Of a stretch of DNA of 32,000 nucleotides, positions 1,706 to 29,176 are shown one piece after another. How positions within the stretch are numbered: the first letter of the stretch is position 1; each line of letters opens with the position of its first letter. This stretch comes from Candidatus Electronema aureum (GTDB lineage: Bacteria; Desulfobacterota; Desulfobulbia; Desulfobulbales; Desulfobulbaceae): NCBI GenBank assembly GCA_004284765.1, contig NQJD01000027.1, positions 1-32,000 on the forward strand. The letters run 5' to 3'. Made by a program: the position numbers and the translations under genes. The notes below the pieces were generated by a model. That model was not told the origin of the DNA. It made no database searches and saw nothing but the letters and a program-made list of their open reading frames with translations.

Positions 1706-3316
1706 TTATTGAAGTTCAATTTTCCTCCAAAACAATGACTCTTTTGTGTTATGTTCTTCGTAATGTTCATTCATAATTTTAAGAATCGACTCTGCGAGAA
1801 CACCGGGTATCTCTTCAAGCACCTGTTTTAGTTTTTCCTGATCCTCATCCCTCTCTCTTTTCTTTTTCTTTGTGCTGGTGGAAATATCTCCACCATGCGC
1901 AACTGTAGAGCGAAAGCTGTAAAGATCGCCTATGAGCTTGAACAGTTTGTCTCGATCTTCATAATTTTCTTTTAAAAAGCGAGCAGCTCGAAGACGAAGG
2001 CGGTATGTTAATTCGGTTCGTTCTGTGCCGTTATCGTTTAAATATATTGCTTCAAGGGCGATAGCATATTCAAGAAGTCGTTCTGGATCATCAGGTGAGT
2101 ATCGTTCAATACTATTACGAAATCGTTTTATAGCGTACTCAATTTTTTTATTTTTTGGAGTAATAGAAGGCAGCATCAATAATATTGCCCTGCTAACAGA
2201 TTCAAGCTCTTCGTTAGTTAGTTGAGCCTTTGAAGCAGGTGAAAAATCAAATCGTTTGGGTGTATATGGGGCCATGTATGACTGATATTCATAAGCATAG
2301 TCGTATGTTTTCTGGATATGAGGAGCAAATGGAGATAAAGGATGGATTTCGATAGTTATAATGCCGATATCATCCAGAGGTCGGCAAAGACGTAAACTGT
2401 CAAGTATCAGTCGAGCAAGGTATGAAGCATAACTATATTCTATGCTATAGGATTTTTCATTATCTTTGGCTGGAATTATAACTTTGTATTTGGCGACAGT
2501 ATTAATTTTTTCAACTCCAATAACAGGTTCTCCTTTCCATGATGTTGGCCGTCCGTCATTTGATAGGGGAGTTAAAAGATCATCTGTCGCATATCCGAGA
2601 ACTACTCGAATAGTCCTTCCTGCTTTGGAAAGATTAATTAATGGCACATCTTCGGATTGATCGATTAATGGGCCGTTAAAAAATATTCTTATTTCGTAAC
2701 TGTCTTCATTCAGTAGCTCTATTTCCTTTAGAGCACTGACAGTTCCTTCTTTTACCATCTCCCAACTGTCAAAATGCTGTCGAGCAGCTGGATCAAATCC
2801 TGCTATTTTGAGTTGTTCCACAAGTATTTTTGAAAAAGCAGAGAAATAAATATGAGCATGATAAGGAAATTCAGTCCCCCAACTTTTTTTCCATTCAATG
2901 AAATTATCCCATGACCCTATTTTAGTTCCTATCAACCCTTTGAAAATGCGATAAGTAAGTCTATCGTGAATACACGCGATCTCTTTAATATCTGAAACAT
3001 TCTTCAATATTTCGGCAAATGCTCCCTGTAACTGTTCACGATGATATGATTTAGGCTCCTCATACGAGCTATTAAGCAAATTCGATATCGAATCTCTTAA
3101 ATCGGATTTCTCTGAAAAAGTAACTTTGACCCCAGGTAATCCTCTAATGGGTCTTCCTGTGACAGGCAGTTTTGTTGCCGTTTCTTCAGCCTCAGTAATT
3201 GCCTTTTTGGGTCGTTCTCGCCAGTAAGGATAATCCTCTTTAAATGAATCAAGCGACCAGAGCTGTGATAAGCTGTCGCATAGCGCATGAATGGTAGTTT
3301 CTAATTCAGGTGTCAT
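1706..3316 (-). CDS. large protein with C-terminal HEPN-type (R-x4-H) domain and an unrecognised ~370-aa N-terminal region (ApeA-like architecture)
   Basis: The track ORF starts at TTG 3328. An ATG at 3316 lies 5 nt after the upstream stop. The C-terminal helical domain contains YSFRSTVAHGG, an R-x4-H motif. The gene is visibly AT-rich compared with its neighbours. Confidence 0.75.
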   Translation of the reverse strand: MTPELETTIHALCDSLSQLWSLDSFKEDYPYWRERPKKAITEAEETATKLPVTGRPIRGLPGVKVTFSEKSDLRDSISNLLNSSYEEPKSYHREQLQGAFAEILKNVSDIKEIACIHDRLTYRIFKGLIGTKIGSWDNFIEWKKSWGTEFPYHAHIYFSAFSKILVEQLKIAGFDPAARQHFDSWEMVKEGTVSALKEIELLNEDSYEIRIFFNGPLIDQSEDVPLINLSKAGRTIRVVLGYATDDLLTPLSNDGRPTSWKGEPVIGVEKINTVAKYKVIIPAKDNEKSYSIEYSYASYLARLILDSLRLCRPLDDIGIITIEIHPLSPFAPHIQKTYDYAYEYQSYMAPYTPKRFDFSPASKAQLTNEELESVSRAILLMLPSITPKNKKIEYAIKRFRNSIERYSPDDPERLLEYAIALEAIYLNDNGTERTELTYRLRLRAARFLKENYEDRDKLFKLIGDLYSFRSTVAHGGDISTSTKKKKRERDEDQEKLKQVLEEIPGVLAESILKIMNEHYEEHNTKESLFWRKIELQ

Positions 3317-3321
3317 TTCAA

Positions 3322-3954
3322 TCACCAAATTTCAATTTCCTCAATCTTCCCCTGCGCCTTTTTCAGCATATGCGCCAACACCCCCATAATCTTGCCAATG
3401 CTGCTGATGTAATAAGAGGGCTTGTCTATAAACACCGTGTCTTCGGCAAGTTTCAGGAATTTCCATTCATCGCCGGTGGTCACGGCCCCATAAATGCACG
3501 GCAGATGGCGATTCTCCTTTTCGTTATACAGCTTGGCCGCGTACATCTCCGCAATGCACTGGCCCAGTCCTGAAATAATGTCCTCATTTTTCGCCTCAAC
3601 CACTGCCAGAACGGGCACATCAAGGTAAAGCTGCTCGGCGGATTGGCTCAGAATGTAATCACAAAAGCCACTCAGGCCCCGCTCACGGTCAACCGTGAAG
3701 TCAATCCCGGAAAAAAGACTGATGCTTTCCGCCAGCATCTCCTTTGCTTCCACCAAAATGTTGATAATGATCAGCTCTGAGCGGGCTTTTTCCGTGTTGA
3801 TTGACAATGCCAGCTGGACATTTCTGGTTAACGTCGTGGCAAGATAGGAACTGATCTCGGCCTCTGGCACCTCGTCAAATAATGAAACAGACTCAACCGT
3901 CTTCAGCTGAAACTCAGCCTTTACTTTCTTCAGGGTAAAATCGCTATAGGCCAT
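3322..3954 (-). CDS. standalone PD-(D/E)xK restriction-endonuclease-fold protein (HsdR-N-terminal-like)
   Basis: The protein is 210 aa. The string GFCDYIL...PVLAVVEAKNEDI...GLGQCIAEMY...YGAVTTGDEWKF fits the D-(D/E)xK-Q core of this fold. The gene is translationally coupled to the downstream gene. Confidence 0.7.
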   Translation of the reverse strand: MAYSDFTLKKVKAEFQLKTVESVSLFDEVPEAEISSYLATTLTRNVQLALSINTEKARSELIIINILVEAKEMLAESISLFSGIDFTVDRERGLSGFCDYILSQSAEQLYLDVPVLAVVEAKNEDIISGLGQCIAEMYAAKLYNEKENRHLPCIYGAVTTGDEWKFLKLAEDTVFIDKPSYYISSIGKIMGVLAHMLKKAQGKIEEIEIW

Positions 3955-3992
3955 GATAATTTTTGCTTATGTCTCGCTGTATTCAGCCTCTT

Positions 3993-4412
3993 TCAATGGA
4001 CAAACAGCATGTTCTGAAACGGATAGGTATTCTTCCAGCGATATGTCCGAAAGTCACGCTGATCAATGCTGAGTATCCTTCCGTCACGCAGCTCTTCTGC
4101 CAAAATGACCAAGGACGCATCCGCCAAATCCATCGGCAGGTCAGCGTATTTTTCCATCAGATTTAGAATAAGGCTGTGATGCTCCTCACGAAGGTCGAAA
4201 ACGATGAAACTCCCTTGACGGAGACTGCGGATGAAACCTAATTCCGCCTCGATTCCCATGCGTTTCAGCAGCAGATGACACGTTTCGGTCAGAACCGGCC
4301 ATGTTGTTATCAGCGGTTCACGCAATCTGCTGAACGCATCTATGGCCACTTGATGATACTTATCGTCGGCATTTACCAAGGCAACCCAGAAGCCTGTGTC
4401 CGCAATAATCAC
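3993..4412 (-). CDS. vapC: PIN-domain ribonuclease toxin VapC
   Basis: The acidic PIN residues are in the expected order: IIADTG, LTETCH, DLADAS, SIDQRDF. The start is GTG and overlaps the upstream stop as GTGA. Confidence 0.9.
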   Translation of the reverse strand: MIIADTGFWVALVNADDKYHQVAIDAFSRLREPLITTWPVLTETCHLLLKRMGIEAELGFIRSLRQGSFIVFDLREEHHSLILNLMEKYADLPMDLADASLVILAEELRDGRILSIDQRDFRTYRWKNTYPFQNMLFVH

Positions 4413-4657
4413 AGCTTATCGCTCCAATCCAATTCGTTCTTGTAATTTTCCGAAAGACTGCTGCCTCCATGCAGACAGCCGACCACGCCGTTCTTGCGGA
4501 AAATCTCCAGCGCATCTTGGCCGACAGCAACTTGATGCCGAGCATACAGCTCGTCAATGGCAAGCTCAAGCACAGTGCGCGCATCTTTTCCCACCGTATG
4601 CTGAAGCTGCTGCAATTTTTCGTAATGCCGATTCCCCAATTCCAGATTGAGCTGCAT
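4409..4657 (-). CDS. vapB: VapB-type antitoxin (family not recognised)
   Basis: The ORF is 82 aa and sits immediately upstream of vapC with a 4-nt GTGA overlap. Size and position are typical of a type II antitoxin. Confidence 0.7.
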   Translation of the reverse strand: MQLNLELGNRHYEKLQQLQHTVGKDARTVLELAIDELYARHQVAVGQDALEIFRKNGVVGCLHGGSSLSENYKNELDWSDKL

Positions 4658-4697
4658 AATTTCCTCCGGTTTCCTTGCTTTCTGTCAGCTCGTTATT

Positions 4698-6674
4698 CTA
4701 CTCTCCTTTCTCCAGCTCCTCAATCTTGCCCTGCGCCTCTTCCCAAGCCGCATACTGCCGCTCCAAAAGCTGCTTCACCTCGCCATATTCCTTGCTGGTT
4801 TTGGTCCATTGCTGCTGATTTGCATACAAAGCTGGGTCGGCCATCTGGGATTCCAGCTCAATCTTCTGCGTTTCCAGCCGCTCAATCTCCTTTTCCGCAT
4901 CCACCGCCTTTTTCTTCCACGGCTTGACTTGGGCATTCACCTGCTCCCGCTGCTGGCCGCGCTGCTTCCGGTCTTCCTTGCGGTCAACACTGACTGCAAC
5001 AGGCTGGACAACAGCAGGTTTTGGCGCGGCAGCTTTGGCATTCCGCAGGCTGCCTGCTGCTTCTTCCTCGCGCCGCTTACGAGTTTCCAAGTAATCGTCA
5101 ATATTGCCGTCGTGGAGGAACGCCTGCTGGTCGCGGATTTCCAGCACCTTGTTGACAAAGGAATTAACAAAGGATCGGTTATGCGAAACCACGACGATCG
5201 TGCCTTCGTATTGAGCCATCGCCTCTTGCAGAACCTCCTGCGAGGCAATGTCGAGATGGTTGGTCGGCTCGTCGAGCATCATCAGGTTGGCAGGCTTGAT
5301 CAGCATCTTTGCCAAAGCAACCCGGCTTTTTTCGCCGCCAGACAGCACCTGCACCTTTTTATCCACATCATCGCCGGTGAAAAGGAATGCGCCCAGCAGT
5401 GAGCGCACCTTGGTTATGGTCATGTCCTGCGCATTGTGATACACCGTGTCCAAAATGCTGTACTGACCGTCTAGCTCCTGCGCCTGATGCTGGCCGAAAT
5501 AAGTCATAACCACATTATGACCCCGACGCACAGTGCCTTCGGCTGGCTCCAGCCCGGCCATGATTTTCATCAAGGTGGTCTTGCCCGCGCCGTTCACGCC
5601 GACCACCGCCAATTTGTCGCCGCGCCGCAGCGTGAACGAGACATCTTTGAAAATCGTCCTGCCGTCAAACTGCTTGCTCACCCCGTTCAGCTCCAGCACG
5701 TCGCGCCCGGAAGCCGCCGCAGGGGGAAAGGCGAAATGGATGGTGCGCTCGCTTTCCGACAGCTCAATCCGCTCGATCTTGTCAAGCTGCTTGACCCGGC
5801 TCTGCACCTGCTTGGCCTTGGTTGATTTGGCCTTGAAGCGGGTGATGAACTGCTCGGTTTGCTTGATCATGGCCTGCTGGTTGTCGTAGGAGGCCCGCTC
5901 CATCTCCATGCGCAGGACTTTCTCCTCCAGATATTTGGAGTAATTTCCTTTATAGACCGTCAGCCTGCCCAGACTTAGCTCCCAGGTTTTTGTTGTCACC
6001 CGGTCGAGGAACGAACGGTCATGGGAGATAATCATCATCGCACCTTGGTACTGCTGAAGGAATTCCTCCATCCAGGTCAGCGAGTCGAGATCAAGGTGGT
6101 TGGTCGGCTCGTCAAGCAGAAGCAAGGCGGGCTGGCGCAAAAGCAGCTTGGCTAAAAGCAGGCGCATGATCCAGCCGCCGGAGAACTCTTTCACCTCCCT
6201 GTCCAAATCCGCTTTGACAAAGCCAAGGCCGAAGAGGATGCGCTCAATCTGCGGGCGGATGCGGAAGACATCGTGGCCTTCGAGCAGATGCTGCAACTCG
6301 CCTTGGCGTTCAATCAGCGCGTCCAGCTCAGGGTCATGCTGGTCAATCCCGGCCATGCGCTGGCTGATTTCCTCAAACTCCCGCTGATGCTGCAAGGCTT
6401 CGTCAAAGGCTCTTTCCGCCTCCTCATACAGGGTGCGACTACCCAGCTCGATGGTGATTTCCTGCGGCAGATAGGCCACAGTGAACCACGAGGCCCGGCT
6501 GATCACACCGGGATCCGTCTCAATCTCCTTGCAGATGATCTTCATCAAGGTGGACTTGCCCGTGCCGTTGACCCCAGCCAGGCCGATGCGGTCGTTGACA
6601 TGAATCTGAGCGGCGATGTCGCGGAAAAGATGCTTAGGGCCGTGCTGAAGGCTGAGGCTGCTGATAGTGAGCAT
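4698..6674 (-). CDS. ABC-F family ATPase (two ABC domains, C-terminal coiled coil)
   Basis: Walker A motifs are GVNGTGKST and GVNGAGKTT. Signature motifs are FSGGWIMR and LSGGEKSR. There are no transmembrane segments, and the tail is Lys/Glu-rich. Confidence 0.95.
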   Translation of the reverse strand: MLTISSLSLQHGPKHLFRDIAAQIHVNDRIGLAGVNGTGKSTLMKIICKEIETDPGVISRASWFTVAYLPQEITIELGSRTLYEEAERAFDEALQHQREFEEISQRMAGIDQHDPELDALIERQGELQHLLEGHDVFRIRPQIERILFGLGFVKADLDREVKEFSGGWIMRLLLAKLLLRQPALLLLDEPTNHLDLDSLTWMEEFLQQYQGAMMIISHDRSFLDRVTTKTWELSLGRLTVYKGNYSKYLEEKVLRMEMERASYDNQQAMIKQTEQFITRFKAKSTKAKQVQSRVKQLDKIERIELSESERTIHFAFPPAAASGRDVLELNGVSKQFDGRTIFKDVSFTLRRGDKLAVVGVNGAGKTTLMKIMAGLEPAEGTVRRGHNVVMTYFGQHQAQELDGQYSILDTVYHNAQDMTITKVRSLLGAFLFTGDDVDKKVQVLSGGEKSRVALAKMLIKPANLMMLDEPTNHLDIASQEVLQEAMAQYEGTIVVVSHNRSFVNSFVNKVLEIRDQQAFLHDGNIDDYLETRKRREEEAAGSLRNAKAAAPKPAVVQPVAVSVDRKEDRKQRGQQREQVNAQVKPWKKKAVDAEKEIERLETQKIELESQMADPALYANQQQWTKTSKEYGEVKQLLERQYAAWEEAQGKIEELEKGE

Positions 6675-6773
6675 TGAATTAAATACAGTCTATGGTTTTT
6701 TTATGCCAAAAAAGGAAAGTCTTGAGAAGTAAAATTCAGCAAAAATAGAAAATTGATGGAGAGTGCTGCTGTC

Positions 6774-7127
6774 TTATTCAATGGGACATTTATTACCATC
6801 TTTATCAATGCAGACAAACGTGACCATTGTGGAAAATATTTCCGAATCATCAACAGGAAATGCGCTTGCTAAACTGACCTGCACCCGATAGGTGACTGAG
6901 GTTTTCCCTGTTTTCTCTTTCTCCACATTGAACACCAGAATGCTGCCCAGCTCCACTCGTTTCTTGTAGCTTACCTTGTCCATACCAACCGTGACAAAGC
7001 TCTTGCCGGGATGGTCTAATCTGGCGCAGATGTAGGCAGCTTCATCCACCCACTTGAGCAGCACGCCGCCGAACAGGTAGCCGTAGTGATTGAGATGCTC
7101 GGTAAGGACTAACTGGTAATTTTGCAT
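6774..7127 (-). CDS. hot-dog fold acyl-CoA thioesterase (YciA/4HBT-like)
   Basis: The protein is 117 aa. LTEHLNHYGYLFGGVLLKWVDEAA is typical of acyl-CoA thioester hydrolases. Confidence 0.8.
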   Translation of the reverse strand: MQNYQLVLTEHLNHYGYLFGGVLLKWVDEAAYICARLDHPGKSFVTVGMDKVSYKKRVELGSILVFNVEKEKTGKTSVTYRVQVSLASAFPVDDSEIFSTMVTFVCIDKDGNKCPIE

Positions 7128-7160
7128 GAGTGATACTCGCTATTTCTTTCTTCTGCGGAT

Positions 7161-7196
7161 AAAAAAAGGCCGCAGCCAGAAGCCGCAGCCTTTTTT
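7161..7196 (-). terminator. Rho-independent terminator after atpE
   Basis: On the minus-strand RNA, GGCUGCGGC-UUCU-GCUGCGGCC forms a 9-bp stem with two G-U pairs. It is followed by a U7 run (A-run at 7161-7167 on the plus strand). It lies 20 nt after the atpE stop. Confidence 0.7.
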
Positions 7197-7215
7197 GTAA
7201 ACTGACGGAGATGAA

Positions 7216-7479
7216 TCAGCCGCCGATCAGGGCTGCTTTGTACGGGTTAGCGAACAGCAGAATAAAGGCGATAACCAAACCATAGATGGCGATGGACTCA
7301 ATCAGGGCCATGCCGAGGATCATGGTGGTGGTGATCGCTCCTTTGGCCTCCGGGTTGCGGGCAATACCGCTACATGCGCTTTCAACGCCACGGCCCATGC
7401 CGAGAGCAGCAGCAAAACCAGTCAATCCGATGGATGTGGCTGCGGAAAAACATACCAGTGCGAGAGAAATCTTGTCCAT
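7216..7479 (-). CDS. atpE: F0F1 ATP synthase subunit c
   Basis: The 87-aa protein forms a two-helix hairpin: GLTGFAAALGMGRG...ARNPEA...ALIESIAIYGLVIAF, which includes the carboxylate Glu. Confidence 0.95.
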   Translation of the reverse strand: MDKISLALVCFSAATSIGLTGFAAALGMGRGVESACSGIARNPEAKGAITTTMILGMALIESIAIYGLVIAFILLFANPYKAALIGG

Positions 7480-7541
7480 TTTTTACCTCCAAACAGTAAT
7501 AGATAAATAGAGTTGGCCTTCTTCGTAGCTTATAGGAAATT

Positions 7542-8264
7542 TCAGTGGGCGTGTTCCATCGCTCCGACGCAGTAAATGACAGCGAGCAGAACAAAAACAA
7601 CACCCTGAATCAGGGAAACAAGCACACCGAGGCACAGGATGGGCAGTGGCGCAAAAATCGCCCCGACCAGCATGAAAAGAACACCGAGCAATATCTCTTT
7701 TGCTAAAATATTGCCAAAAAGACGCATGGAAAGGGAAACAAGACGAGCAAAGTTGCCGATCAGCTCAAGAATAATCATAAACGGAGCCATAACTGCAATC
7801 GGCCCGGTGAAATGCTTGTAGTATTTCCAACCGTGATAGCGGAAGCCCAGAATATGATGAAGAAGCCAGACAATGATGGTCATGGCGACGGTGATATTGA
7901 GACTGGAGGTGGGCGACATAAAGCCAGGCAGCAGGCCGATCATGTTAGCCAGCACGATGTAAATGAAAAAGGTCGCCAACACCGGGAAGAGCATCCGGGC
8001 TTTTTCGCGGCCCATGTGCTCGGCAAAAAAATCCATTAGCCCACCAATCAGAGCCTCCCAAAAATTCTGGCCAGTGCCTGGCACCAATTCCAATTTGCCT
8101 AAAGTCAGCTTCGGCACTACGAACAGAAAGGCCATGATCAGCCAACTGTAGGTCAGGTAAGGTTCAGTTAGCTTTTCCAGCAGCGTTCCGCCGATCGGCC
8201 CGTGAGGAACCGGTAGTCCGATCCAGTTGAGAATCACCGAGATGAAAAGTATTGGATGTTCCAT
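7542..8264 (-). CDS. atpB: F0F1 ATP synthase subunit a
   Basis: The 240-aa protein is polytopic and carries the conserved SLSMRLFGNILAKE motif with the essential Arg. Confidence 0.95.
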   Translation of the reverse strand: MEHPILFISVILNWIGLPVPHGPIGGTLLEKLTEPYLTYSWLIMAFLFVVPKLTLGKLELVPGTGQNFWEALIGGLMDFFAEHMGREKARMLFPVLATFFIYIVLANMIGLLPGFMSPTSSLNITVAMTIIVWLLHHILGFRYHGWKYYKHFTGPIAVMAPFMIILELIGNFARLVSLSMRLFGNILAKEILLGVLFMLVGAIFAPLPILCLGVLVSLIQGVVFVLLAVIYCVGAMEHAH

Positions 8265-19123: not shown

Positions 19124-21070
19124 ATGAATCCTCTTGACGACCTTCCGCAACGCCATAATTCTCACGATACTGGAGAAGCGGCAGAAACTGCTTTCCGAAA
19201 TGCTGTCAATAATCTGAATTATTTTGTTATCCAACGGGAAGACCGCAATGACTATGGAACAGATATTCAGATAGAAGCTCGCAAAGGCGACGCAATGACG
19301 AATATCCGTGTCCATGTTCAATTGAAGGGTACAGAGTCAACTACAAACAAAGATGATTCGGTCAGTATTTCAGTTGAACGCACGAATCTGAATTATCTTT
19401 TGGCACAACCAAATTCAGTTTACGTTTGTTATCATCTCCCTTCCAAGCGGTTGTTGGTTCGTTATGCAGAAGATGTTTACCGCGAATATGAACATCGTGG
19501 CGGAGCTTGGATGCAACAGAGTAATTTAACAGTACGCTTCTTTCAACCATTTGACGAACATTTTCAGCAGCAGCTCAATGCACGGGTCATTGCTTCTGGA
19601 ACAGCAGGAAGAGACAGGCGGCTTCTGTGGACAGGTACACCTCCTGATAAACTCTCGGCTTTAGTCCAGAGATCGAATGAGGTCATTGAAGTGCCTGTTG
19701 ACGAAGAACAGGCATTGAAGGTGCTTGAAGAGCTTTATGAGGTTGGCAAAGATAGCACAATCAGTAATTGTTTTGATCAGTTTGCTGCCGTGCTCGGTTC
19801 CGTCCCGCACGGAATGCTTTTTGCTTATTTGGCAGAAATCAACTTGGGGATTAATGCAATTCCATTCGACAGAGATAGGATTATCGAAGGAGTTAAGTTT
19901 CTTGATGAAATGATCGAGAAGCAAGAAGGACATCCTGGCTCAATCTTTTATTGCATAGGTAATGCAGGATTAGCTTTAGGTAATTATGAAATGGCTCAGG
20001 CTGCTTATTATAACGCTTTAAAATTGCTGCGTGTTACTCCTGAAACATATGAATTAGCAGCCAGATGCTGCAAGAATTGGGGGAGTGTCTTGAAAAAGAT
20101 TTCGAGAATGCACGAGGCCCGTAATGCCTATGAAGGAGCATTAAAATTTGATCCTGATTTAGGGGAAGCGCATTTGGCTCTTGGTCTCTGGCACCGTCAG
20201 CATGGAAATATATCTTTGGCATTAAAACATCTTGATAACGTAATTCAACAGAGCAATTCTGCTGTGCAGATGTCCACAGTGCATGGCTGGAGGATGACTC
20301 TGTTCTTTGAAAGCGGGGATACTGAAGGAGCATTCCGGGAAATAAACAATCTGATCGGCGAGGCTAAACAACATGAATGGATTTGGCCATGCTGTGCAAG
20401 GCATGTCGCTCAATTTGGTGTAACATCTGCTGACTCTGCTCGAAAGGCTCTTATATTCTGGCGGCAGTATCTTCGTGAACACCCAAAGTATAGTCGTGCT
20501 GAACGGGAACGTTTGCTCTGTAATTGGTATTTACACTCACGGGGAGCACCTTGTGAAATTGACTTTCAAGGATTCAAGACCGCAGTTGTCCAGTTGATAG
20601 AGAATGGCGATTCATCACCTGCATTTTTATGGGACAGAATAGGGCACTTTGCTCAAGATGACGGTGACTGGGAAGAAGCTGAACAGGCTTACCGGAAGGC
20701 ATACCAAATAGAACCTGAACGATACGGTTATTGTTTGGGAACAGCATTAAATCTTCTTCGTCGCTACAGCGAAGCTCTTCCCATTCTGCTTCCTCAAGCC
20801 GAGCAGCATCTTCCTGACGCTATGAGTTGGTTTCAGGTGGCACAGGCACGCGGAGGCGTTGGCGACATCGAAGGTTGTATTTCTGCGTATGAGAAGGCTA
20901 TAGAGCTTGATGACAGTTATGACCTTGCTTGGTTCAATCTCGGCGGCGTTTATTGGAACAACCGGCAGACAGAAAAAGCTGGTGAGATATGGAGAGAAGC
21001 GGTGAGACGTTTTCCAAATCATGAAATAGCCAAGAAGCTTCTCCAAGATTTGCTCAGTAGATCGGCCTGA
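19124..21070 (+). CDS. DUF4365 (PD-(D/E)xK-like nuclease fold) N-terminal domain fused to a long TPR array
   Basis: The protein is 648 aa. The N-terminus reads GEAAETAF...NDYGTDIQIEARKG...VHVQLKG...NLNYLL...VYVCY, which fits the DUF4365 pattern. The C-terminal ~400 aa contain multiple TPR-like units (AYYNALKL, AYEGALKFDPDLGEAHLALG, AYRKAYQIEPE, AYEKAIELDDSYDLAWFNLG). Confidence 0.8.
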   Translation: MNPLDDLPQRHNSHDTGEAAETAFRNAVNNLNYFVIQREDRNDYGTDIQIEARKGDAMTNIRVHVQLKGTESTTNKDDSVSISVERTNLNYLLAQPNSVYVCYHLPSKRLLVRYAEDVYREYEHRGGAWMQQSNLTVRFFQPFDEHFQQQLNARVIASGTAGRDRRLLWTGTPPDKLSALVQRSNEVIEVPVDEEQALKVLEELYEVGKDSTISNCFDQFAAVLGSVPHGMLFAYLAEINLGINAIPFDRDRIIEGVKFLDEMIEKQEGHPGSIFYCIGNAGLALGNYEMAQAAYYNALKLLRVTPETYELAARCCKNWGSVLKKISRMHEARNAYEGALKFDPDLGEAHLALGLWHRQHGNISLALKHLDNVIQQSNSAVQMSTVHGWRMTLFFESGDTEGAFREINNLIGEAKQHEWIWPCCARHVAQFGVTSADSARKALIFWRQYLREHPKYSRAERERLLCNWYLHSRGAPCEIDFQGFKTAVVQLIENGDSSPAFLWDRIGHFAQDDGDWEEAEQAYRKAYQIEPERYGYCLGTALNLLRRYSEALPILLPQAEQHLPDAMSWFQVAQARGGVGDIEGCISAYEKAIELDDSYDLAWFNLGGVYWNNRQTEKAGEIWREAVRRFPNHEIAKKLLQDLLSRSA

Positions 21071-27898: not shown

Positions 27899-29176
27899 AT
27901 GAATTTTTCTATCAAAACCAAAAGGGTAAAGCTAATCATCTTTTGCTGGAAGAGCGTATTTCACCAAGAACCTTCTCTGGGAGTGATACGACAGGCTGAA
28001 AGATTTTTTCTCTTTGGGACAGGCATGATGGTAGCAAGATTTCTGTCCGTTGCTTCCCAAGTTATCATGGGCAGGAAGTTTGGGCCGGAAATCTACGGGC
28101 AGATTACAATAATTCTGCTCATATCAAGCTATTTTGCCATGCCAATAGTCAATGGCTGGGGTTTAGTTTTCACTAAGATTGCCGTAAAAGAAATCGATGT
28201 CAGCAAAAAAAATCAAGCCCTAAAGTCCCTGCTGCTTGTCGTCTCTGTTTGCTGTATCCTAACCACGCTCGTCCTTTTTGTTCTGCAAAGCCCTCTTGCT
28301 GACTTACTGGATATCGACAGAAGAATGATGCGTTTGTCACTTATCATGACTGTTTGCTATGCTTGGTGGATATTGACAAAACAGATAGCGCAAGGATTTC
28401 AGAATTGGCGGGCATATATTCTGATTGAAAATATTTGGGCATCTATTGTTCTTTCAGGTCTTCTGGTGCTGGCATTCTGGGGAAAGTTTAATCTTTTTAC
28501 GGTGAGTTGGGTCTTCTTTGCAGGGTATGTTGTCGCTGGCCTTGTTCTTGTCAAAGGCCTCTGGCAGTCTCTTCTTGTTAAAATTGATAAAAATTATATA
28601 AAGGATATCCTCTCACATGGCTGGTTTCTGTTGCTGAATAGCATAGTTGGCACAGCGGCTTTCAGCGTTGACAGAATAATGATCAACAAAGCTCTTGGTA
28701 GCCAAGAAGTCGGAATATATCAAGCGCATTTTATTGCAACTTATGGCATGACTTCAGCTATATTTACTGTATTTATCACATATATATTTCCAATTATTTG
28801 TCGAAACAACACAAACACTGTTTCTCTTTTAGAGAAGATAGCTTTTTTGCAGTATCCTGCCACAATACTTTTCACTGCGGCGACGGGTTATTTTTCATTT
28901 AGTTTGTTTAGTTATCAATTCAACAGCATTCTTTTTATTTTTTTGGTTATGTTTTGTGCGATACAAAATCATTTACAGATAAATCTATGGTATATAGCAA
29001 GCAAGGGGATAGATGGCGGAAAAAAAACACTCATAAGTCAAGCAGTATTTTTTTTATCAAGCACGGTTATCTTAATTGTAATTTTACCATATTGTAAGAC
29101 TTATTCTGGCGGAATAGCTTTAGCCGTTTCTTCATTAATAACATTAATTTTCTCAGGAGAGAAAAAAGGTTTGTAG
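27899..29176 (+). CDS. polysaccharide/O-antigen flippase (Wzx-like, MOP superfamily)
   Basis: The 425-aa protein has about 12 hydrophobic helices. It sits inside a glycosyltransferase/methyltransferase operon. The exact start is uncertain. Confidence 0.75.
   Translation: MNFSIKTKRVKLIIFCWKSVFHQEPSLGVIRQAERFFLFGTGMMVARFLSVASQVIMGRKFGPEIYGQITIILLISSYFAMPIVNGWGLVFTKIAVKEIDVSKKNQALKSLLLVVSVCCILTTLVLFVLQSPLADLLDIDRRMMRLSLIMTVCYAWWILTKQIAQGFQNWRAYILIENIWASIVLSGLLVLAFWGKFNLFTVSWVFFAGYVVAGLVLVKGLWQSLLVKIDKNYIKDILSHGWFLLLNSIVGTAAFSVDRIMINKALGSQEVGIYQAHFIATYGMTSAIFTVFITYIFPIICRNNTNTVSLLEKIAFLQYPATILFTAATGYFSFSLFSYQFNSILFIFLVMFCAIQNHLQINLWYIASKGIDGGKKTLISQAVFFLSSTVILIVILPYCKTYSGGIALAVSSLITLIFSGEKKGL

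Follow-up and report, generated by a model that had tools for sequence, protein, structure and literature searches.

A candidate sensor-HEPN gene and putative later insertions behind an ABC-F gene of Candidatus Electronema aureum

Gene arrangement at the locus

The subject of this analysis is a group of four genes at positions 1706–4657 of a 32,000-nucleotide (nt) stretch of Candidatus Electronema aureum DNA, which is called the window in the following. A sequence-only reading had proposed that two of them, a large gene ending in a HEPN domain and a gene for a protein of 210 amino acids (aa) with a nuclease fold, form a translationally coupled defence or conflict system next to a VapBC toxin–antitoxin (TA) module. 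Our data point to a different arrangement, in which independent conflict modules have probably accreted behind a housekeeping gene and the large gene is a candidate single-gene defence locus.

The housekeeping anchor is an ABC-F (Uup-like) ATPase gene on the minus strand (4698–6674), the 3′ end of which is the insertion site discussed below. In orthologous loci, the ABC-F protein matches Pfam ABC_tran, ABC_tran_Xtn and ABC_tran_CTD. Its identity to the window copy is 95–97% in the related loci L091, L093 and L119 and 74–76% in Electrothrix-type loci. Downstream of it and on the same strand lie a vapB-like open reading frame (ORF) as antitoxin candidate (4409–4657, 82 aa), a VapC-like PIN ORF (3993–4412, 139 aa, GTG start), the 210-aa ORF with a PD-(D/E)xK fold (3322–3954) and the large ORF, for which the ORF listing offers two starts (1706–3316, ATG, 536 aa; 1706–3328, TTG, 540 aa). 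The coordinates and junctions of these four co-directional ORFs are as previously described: vapB and vapC overlap by GTGA at 4409–4412, 38 nt separate vapC from the 210-aa gene, and a gap of 5 nt precedes ATG 3316. This ATG is the better start of the large gene, because homologues align from this methionine, a GGTGA Shine-Dalgarno (SD) core is located 5 nt upstream of it, and the start sequence ATGACACCTGAATTAGAA is conserved, being kept in five other loci.

The transcript had been proposed to end near a minus-strand hairpin at 1684–1700, 5 nt past the large-gene stop codon. The hairpin is indeed present as a 7-bp stem, but it is at best a weak terminator candidate because the minus strand offers no U-tract there and a single other locus, L093, has retained the hairpin. 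A promoter scan yielded sigma-70-like sites no more numerous than expected by chance. No CRISPR array, cas gene, tRNA or Rfam family was detected within the window.

The large protein ends in a predicted HEPN domain

The C-terminal domain of the large protein (about aa 361–536, encoded at 1709–2236 on the minus strand) contains the sequence FRSTVAHG, in which R469 (codon 1910–1912) and H474 (codon 1895–1897) form the R-x4-H signature. Both residues are invariant in 26 aligned homologues, which share the motif LYxxRSxVAHG. The AlphaFold2 (AF2) model of the protein has a predicted local distance difference test score (pLDDT) of 87 and a predicted template modelling score (pTM) of 0.87. It consists of a helix and a beta-hairpin (aa 1–72), a helical part (73–203), a beta-rich part (204–326) and an all-helical part (368–536).

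To PDB sequences, neither phmmer nor a profile of the full-length protein gave a relevant match. Only a broadened profile of the C-terminal domain did so; this profile, A3, combines the window HEPN domain with 20 distant C-domain relatives. Its best matches were ApeA proteins (Ec3ApeA, 7.5e-4; Ec2ApeA, 1.3e-3 to 2.4e-3), followed at 0.01 by Csx1-Crn2, which is a CARF-HEPN ribonuclease (RNase) (PMC11317161). All matches with E<0.7 were HEPN proteins, namely ApeA from Ec2 and Ec3 and Csx1-Crn2. In the A3 alignments both HEPN core helices are co-linear with those of ApeA, and R469 and H474 fall on R502 and H507 of Ec2ApeA. Further profile matches were weak and below the curated thresholds throughout (CARF_HEPN, 4e-4; HEPN_MAE_28990, 1e-3; RiboL-PSP HEPN, 6e-3), with CARF_HEPN being weakly matched in 6 of the 26 homologues. 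The invariant R-x4-H, the ApeA proteins as best PDB matches and the all-helical model support the assignment made in the sequence-only reading, and we accept the domain as a predicted HEPN domain of the four-helix type. The comparison with ApeA-type single-gene HEPN defence, also drawn there, gains support from the same PDB matches.

Searches of Pfam, NCBIfam and PHROGs yielded nothing useful for the large protein, and models of ApeA itself were not matched. For the window protein, the PADLOC ApeA model (PDLC02157), Pfam HEPN_Apea (PF18739) and ApeA_NTD1 gave no match at E≤1, and no ApeA model was matched at E≤0.1 by any of the 26 large-protein family members. The best HEPN_Apea match, 0.014, belonged to a single distant C-domain relative. 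By tblastn, two ApeA-like proteins of Bacillus were recovered, both distant, which do reach the PADLOC ApeA model; a homologue search with a 63-aa fragment of Ec2ApeA did not find ApeA homologues. The N-terminal part of about 360 aa (2237–3316, minus strand), which we presume to be the sensor or regulatory part, matched nothing in Pfam, PADLOC, NCBIfam, PDB or BFVD; the earlier reading had likewise recognised nothing in it. Its secondary structure is that of the predicted model, and it contains many polar residues that are invariant in the 26 homologues (R58/G59, N214/P216/D219, D245, N272/T273, D306/R309, D316/G318 and R355). Because the ApeA models are unmatched and the N-terminal 360 residues resemble nothing, the large protein is, as judged from these searches, not filed as a member of the ApeA family.

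In an exhaustive profile search, the full-length architecture was found in about 87 representative clusters. The HEPN domain alone, joined to N-termini of diverse kinds, recurs in more than 10,000 representative clusters. The signature of this clade reads RFNxSxER...IALEALYL...ELxYRLxLR...YxxRSxIVHG. Ten of its members were examined further and gave no Pfam family at E≤0.01 and no PADLOC family, except for one weak CARF_HEPN match.

The large gene occurs without the 210-aa gene

The family of the large protein is rare, with 33 homologous clusters in 5.8 billion proteins. We fetched 13 genome and 77 metagenome loci for its relatives and used the 210-aa, PIN and VapB proteins as queries against them. 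In these scans 15 loci carry a near-full-length relative, and no homologue of any of the three queries is present in them, nor in the further distant loci L114–L118. Altogether, near-full-length relatives of the large protein are encoded in 17 distant loci, none of which has the 210-aa gene. A 209- or 210-aa gene directly upstream of the large gene was observed only in the window (L094), in L091 (Candidatus Electronema, GCA_052784925.1) and in L093, all at one orthologous chromosomal site. In L119, L120 and three independent Electrothrix marina assemblies (L111–L113), the large gene directly follows the ABC-F gene, with a gap of 6–15 nt or with overlapping stop and start codons. L119 encodes the closest non-identical relative of the large protein (76%) together with an ABC-F protein that is 95% identical to that of the window. 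The 210-aa gene is also absent beside the large gene of L001.

Outside this site the two genes show no synteny, which, by a criterion that the sequence-only reading had itself set, leaves its coupled two-gene system unsupported. The suggested alliance of this pair with vapBC is not supported either, since what lies between the 210-aa gene and ABC-F changes from locus to locus: vapBC in the window, an opposite-strand ParE/Phd pair in L091 and two unassigned ORFs in L093. As would be expected of an ApeA-like single gene, the large gene lacks a conserved partner in each of the 17 distant loci with a near-full-length relative and in half the loci from cable bacteria.

More distant homologues stand by themselves in regions that are variable and either mobile or rich in conflict genes. 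L116 carries an integrase fragment, a D5-type primase, a relaxase, a NACHT nucleoside triphosphatase and a MafB19 deaminase with Imm1; in L118 there are BrnT/BrnA, GmrSD_N and HNH genes, and an upstream ORF in L003 was read as a candidate IS3-type transposase. The L116 region, an integrative element, also holds a restriction endonuclease (REase)-fold gene of the HSDR_N_2 type (5692–6576, 294 aa), about 1.4 kb upstream of a large-gene homologue with 30% identity, and this is the only other nuclease-fold neighbour that was seen. In L001, a metagenome-assembled genome (MAG) of Electrothrix marina, what looks like a frameshift near 7180 breaks the large gene (6499–8131) into two ORFs. L111–L113, from the same species, encode an intact large protein of 528 aa. 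The split gene reflects either an assembly error or occasional pseudogenisation.

The 210-aa protein belongs to a large standalone family

The 210-aa protein matches the PADLOC model PDLC01472 PD_DExK end to end (6.7e-51). An alignment of 25 homologues shows E55, E60, D99, E120, K122 and Q132 to be invariant, among them the catalytic-type residues D99 (codon 3658–3660), E120 (3595–3597) and K122 (3589–3591, all minus strand), with E120 and K122 enclosing one alanine. This confirms the PD-(D/E)xK core that had been read from the sequence. Consistent with the profile match, the AF2 model (pLDDT 90) displays the strand and helix order expected of a PD-(D/E)xK fold. Its top Foldseek matches (probability 1.0) were chains 5 and s of the mitoribosomal large subunit, which we take to be the restriction-endonuclease-like mL37/mL65 pair. 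The protein matched no Pfam or NCBIfam family and nothing useful among the PHROGs, and the family has no characterised member.

More than 6,400 clusters with 65–98% identity make up this family, with hosts among cable bacteria, Beggiatoa/Thiotrichaceae, Competibacteraceae and filamentous cyanobacteria. The mean column identity is 71%, and proteins of Desulfobulbaceae and cyanobacteria are about 68% identical, including the N-terminus MAYSDFTLKKVK. The family is sporadic among filamentous or large-genome bacteria. High conservation combined with sporadic spread suggests strong constraint together with horizontal transfer. The 210-aa genes of other phyla, when checked for a mobile-element signature, had no consistent flanking direct or inverted repeats.

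In three of three unrelated contexts that were sampled, the 210-aa gene stands alone, without a HEPN partner: between phosphotransferase system (PTS) and NAD-kinase genes, beside a NotI restriction–modification pair (Moorena), and near a PIN gene. A recurrent link between vapBC and the 210-aa gene was considered and rejected, as the PIN protein beside the 210-aa homologue in L101–L108 is unrelated to the PIN protein of the window. PDLC01472 is listed as a CRISPR-associated accessory profile. A CRISPR link was nevertheless rejected for this locus, since the window contains no array, cas gene or Rfam match.

The VapBC module

Of the VapBC assignment, the toxin part stands. The 139-aa protein matches Pfam PIN at 9.4e-9 (36.4 bits, cut-off 23.6) and, weakly, the TIGR00028 VapC subfamily, and its sequence, read by eye, shows acidic residues where PIN proteins typically have them (D5, E43 and a D-rich C-terminal part). 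The antitoxin part rests on arrangement: the 82-aa ORF has no match to a Pfam, NCBIfam, PADLOC or PHROG family and is a putative antitoxin by its position, its size and its overlap with vapC.

Just downstream of the large gene, L091 (9644–9712) and L092 (1746–1814) contain a VapB-like remnant that is 65% identical to residues 48–70 of the window VapB. The Electronema genome in question has no vapBC upstream. The remnant indicates that TA modules may turn over or rearrange around the large gene.

A duplicated ABC-F 3′ end marks the proposed insertions

A direct repeat of about 25 nt, repeat R, with the core GCGCAGGGGAAGATTGAGGA, is found twice on the minus strand of the window. The left copy (4717–4741) lies in the true 3′ end of the ABC-F gene, and the right copy (3338–3362) lies inside the 3′ end of the 210-aa ORF and consists of ABC-F tail sequence. 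No match of the core is expected by chance. The copies are 1379 nt apart, a spacing that delimits the inserted vapB-vapC-210 segment. L091 and L093 have three copies each, which bracket each module. One sits at the ABC-F end, a second separates the TA-like module from the 210-aa gene, and the third lies where the 210-aa gene ends. The middle copy is absent from the window.

The right copy also leaves its trace in the protein, as the tail AQGKIEEIEIW of the 210-aa protein resembles the ABC-F C-terminus EEAQGKIEELEKGE. Such an ABC-F-derived tail is carried only by the 13 closest cable-bacterial clusters and is absent from the family outside cable bacteria. Positions 3359–3316 of the window, comprising the last ~35 nt of the 210-aa ORF, GGTGA and the ATG of the large gene, align with the uninterrupted ABC-F/large-gene junction of L119, L120 and L113. 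The junction between the 210-aa and the large gene is a relic, composed of a duplicated ABC-F 3′ end and the old SD and ATG of the large gene. The apparent translational coupling is therefore inherited from the ancestral ABC-F/large-gene junction and does not speak for a joint function, as had been assumed. The ancestral ABC-F stop codon was lost from the window through a short deletion, so that the 210-aa ORF now runs to the TGA within GGTGA.

Among the closest homologues of the 210-aa protein (P0034–P0046), many end in the left-type ABC-F tail (...AQGKIEELEKGE) rather than in the ancestral junction type that the window has. These left-type tails suggest that the order or number of cassettes at the site varies among populations. 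The left-type repeat copies (window 4695–4723; L091 ~7258–7290; L093 ~3998–4030) contain a sigma-70-like sequence, TTGAGG-N17-TAGAAT, directly ahead of the insert (vapB in the window, the 210-aa gene in L091), and its −10 element includes the ABC-F stop codon. Each insertion might thus bring or keep a predicted promoter, bearing in mind that the overall promoter scan was no better than chance.

Composition and rate of evolution

The large gene had been described as visibly richer in AT than the flanking genes, and the numbers bear this out: its GC fraction is 0.38 and its GC fraction at third codon positions (GC3) is 0.29, compared with a GC3 of 0.73 for the ABC-F and 0.62 for the 210-aa gene. 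In every large-gene orthologue GC3 is 0.28–0.31. Two other long ORFs of the window (19124–21070 and 27899–29176) have a GC3 of 0.38 against a background of 0.56–0.73, so that the patchy composition of the window extends past the region under study.

Nonsynonymous (dN) and synonymous (dS) substitution rates between the window and L091 were compared gene by gene. The ABC-F gene has a dN of 0.017 and a dS of 0.30 (dN/dS, omega, about 0.06), and the 210-aa gene evolves at a similar, housekeeping-like rate (dN 0.023, dS 0.35, omega about 0.07). For the large gene, dN is 0.141 and dS 0.51 (omega 0.28). A comparison with L093 showed the same pattern; overall, dN of the large gene is 6–8 times that of ABC-F, with an omega of 0.23–0.32, and every domain has an omega of 0.15–0.33. 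The large gene is also a mosaic: its HEPN part is closest to L093 and L091 (88–90% identity) and its N-terminal parts are closest to L119 (82–85%). The helical subdomain at aa 73–203 is hypervariable, with 38–82% identity among orthologues. Fast evolution, recombination and foreign composition together with selective constraint are typical of defence genes. The evolution of the large gene thus looks arms-race-like.

One further feature lies in the interval that separates the large-gene stop codon from ATG 1413, where the next gene on the minus strand (152 aa) starts. A tandem array at 1516–1647, also found in L093 (7086–7234) and absent in L091, comprises about 5–6 units of 21 nt with super-periods of 43/64 nt. 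The unit is roughly CCCAGAAnnTTCCTGCCTC, and each contains the imperfect palindrome CAGAA-n-TTCTG. The array may be a putative transcription-factor binding array for the downstream 152-aa gene.

Discussion

It seems fairly likely that the locus represents three independent conflict modules accreted behind the ABC-F gene, with the large gene as the resident sensor-HEPN gene and VapBC and the PD-(D/E)xK gene as later inserts. The large gene itself is best described as a candidate defence gene, a standalone, fast-evolving, mosaic and AT-rich gene for a putative ApeA-like sensor-HEPN RNase. By analogy with ApeA, the N-terminal ~360 aa would hold the HEPN RNase inactive until an infection or stress cue relieves the inhibition. 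HEPN dimers using R469 and H474 would then cut RNA (tRNA, mRNA or invader RNA), which would arrest growth or block the invader. The PD-(D/E)xK gene and the VapBC module would have been inserted between the ABC-F and the HEPN gene, each insertion duplicating about 25–50 nt of the ABC-F 3′ end. Most simply, circular cassettes, each with a single copy of the repeat, would have integrated through one Campbell-type crossover. Insertion would in this way have fused the 210-aa ORF to the ABC-F tail, 5 nt from the old SD and ATG of the HEPN gene.

Several observations weigh against this reading. No HEPN or ApeA family model is matched by the large protein at its curated threshold. Alignment by hhalign to the two Bacillus ApeA-like proteins gave a probability of 1–2%, at an effective number of template sequences (Neff) of only 1.3, and a Foldseek search with the whole large-protein model retrieved no HEPN or ApeA structure from a library that may lack ApeA entries. 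No integrase is annotated within 8–10 kb in L091, L093 and L094, and the insertion mechanism is conjecture. Across the Electronema/Electrothrix divergence the large gene stays at one chromosomal site, often overlapping the ABC-F stop codon. Such stability is unusual for a defence gene and could point to a lineage-specific cellular role. Finally, in the three loci that have both, the 210-aa and large genes are co-directional and probably co-transcribed, and a secondary functional link in this sub-lineage is therefore possible.

A lineage-specific role is the core of one alternative, by which the large protein would serve cable bacteria in housekeeping or RNA processing, with a functional tie to the ABC-F translation factor and not to defence. 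Gene order (4HBT, ABC-F, large gene) persists across deep divergence, with ABC-F identity down to 74%; in L120, L113 and L119 the stop codon of ABC-F and the start codon of the large gene overlap or almost touch, and the ORFs are intact with an omega below 1 in at least six lineages. We nevertheless regard this as unlikely, as the gene is fast, mosaic and persistently foreign in GC3, and its 33 clusters in 5.8 billion proteins are spread patchily over unrelated phyla, in mobile or defence contexts without a nearby ABC-F gene. Moreover, the gene is apparently frameshifted in one MAG (L001), and insertions have parted it from ABC-F in three lineages without its being lost. Decay of the whole cassette, with the large gene and its neighbours as inert, horizontally acquired debris and the motifs as mere remnants, is highly improbable. 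The AT-rich composition, the frameshifted copy in L001, the vapB-like remnant downstream of the large gene in L091 and L092 and the turnover of TA modules at the site would agree with decay, but all four ORFs of the window are intact, the catalytic-type residues are invariant, the AF2 models of the large and the 210-aa proteins are confident, and purifying values of omega were obtained for each large-gene domain (0.15–0.33) and for the 210-aa gene (about 0.07).

Quite unlikely, too, is the original proposal that the 210-aa PD-(D/E)xK and HEPN genes form one translationally coupled two-gene defence or TA-like system, possibly with vapBC, in which the nuclease would, for example, sense or process invader DNA or neutralise a HEPN toxin. 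Intact large genes occur without the 210-aa gene in L119, L120, the three E. marina assemblies and every distant locus, and other modules replace vapBC in the sister loci. The 210-aa family is ~200 times larger and standalone elsewhere. The two genes are indeed co-directional with a 5-nt gap, and they have remained neighbours in three loci, where strong purifying selection acts on the 210-aa gene (dN 0.02–0.04), but the tight junction is inherited from ABC-F and the genes differ in GC3 (0.62 versus 0.29) and in dN (0.02 versus 0.14). In conflict systems, HEPN domains are commonly fused to REase domains or encoded near them (PMC3710099), and the different REase-fold gene (HSDR_N_2) about 1.4 kb upstream of the distant L116 homologue is in line with such a pairing. 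A nuclease partner is also conceivable from the activation of ApeA, which is switched on by deoxydinucleotide products of DNA degradation (bioRxiv 10.64898/2026.01.26.701840). On this analogy, the inserted PD-(D/E)xK nuclease might have been co-opted in Electronema to make a DNA-breakdown ligand for the HEPN RNase, which we consider very unlikely.

The preferred reading, a resident sensor-HEPN gene with later inserts, can be carried further on both of its sides. The large protein would then found an ApeA-like family of single-protein HEPN defence with a hypervariable sensor, within a HEPN clade of more than 10,000 clusters that Pfam and PADLOC miss; jointly, the ABC-F 3′ end would be a dedicated capture site at which small conflict cassettes are serially integrated and exchanged without a nearby integrase, the ABC-F tail being regenerated each time. 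We put this combined proposal forward tentatively and would not count on it.

What appeared to be a new multi-gene defence system is thus resolved into its real units, and the locus illustrates how genes can end up tightly packed through chance insertions in the past, a spacing that is then no evidence of functional coupling. The rare, confidently foldable sensor-HEPN family, in which an ApeA-like catalytic domain follows an N-terminal region without known relatives, could be tested cheaply as a candidate for single-gene phage defence. Annotation libraries leave uncovered both a large HEPN clade and a PD-(D/E)xK family that is very large and strikingly conserved. Cable bacteria either lack cultures or are difficult to manipulate, and knowledge of their mobile elements and immunity is scant. 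The duplicated ABC-F tail marks an insertion hot spot in this group.

Comparison with known systems

Like VapBC modules, the pair in the window combines a PIN toxin above the Pfam threshold with a small overlapping ORF upstream; unlike in these, the putative antitoxin matches no antitoxin family model. The insertions recall island integration at 3′ ends, as known from tRNA/tmRNA att sites and integron arrays, in that modules are bracketed by the 3′-terminal 25–50 nt of the target, the target ORF is restored, and module content varies among close relatives. They differ from these in that the target is a protein-coding ABC-F tail and that no integrase, attC-like structure or tRNA was found in the window or related loci. 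The 210-aa protein shares with PDLC01472 and PD-(D/E)xK proteins the whole model, the E...D...ExK...Q core and the alpha/beta fold; its gene is not beside CRISPR-Cas here or in the sampled loci, and its conservation across phyla, ~68% identity, is unusually high.

For the large protein, the CARF-HEPN proteins Csx1/Csm6 and the MAE_28990/MAE_18760, RiboL-PSP and AbiD/F-type HEPN families (Anantharaman et al. 2013, PMC3710099) are suitable comparisons. They also place a helical RNase-type domain with R-x4-H C-terminal to a larger regulatory region. In contrast to Csx1/Csm6, the large protein has no CARF or other known sensor domain, and the window has no CRISPR array or cas gene.

The closest comparison is ApeA, which Gao et al. 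reportedly described in 2020 as a single-gene HEPN anti-phage defence. Structures for comparison are available for Ec1–Ec4ApeA (9HXB–9HXM). ApeA combines a helical domain at the N-terminus and a middle domain with a HEPN domain that is split, its HEPN dimers build rings, and it cuts tRNA anticodon loops or phage RNA (bioRxiv 10.64898/2026.01.26.701840; 10.64898/2026.03.20.713152). The large protein differs in that it falls short of the PADLOC ApeA model and of Pfam HEPN_Apea/ApeA_NTD1, in that its N-terminal 360 aa are without detectable sequence or fold similarity to ApeA, and in that it is shorter, with a HEPN domain that appears less split. On the other hand, both are single, standalone polypeptides of 500–600 aa with a C-terminal HEPN domain and R-x4-H. 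An IALEaL helix and a Y-x-R-(S/N)-x-(I/V)-V-H-(G/T) helix are co-linear in the two. As far as the predicted model can be compared with the ApeA preprints, the order of domains is analogous as well, from a helical N-terminus through an alpha/beta middle part to the HEPN domain.

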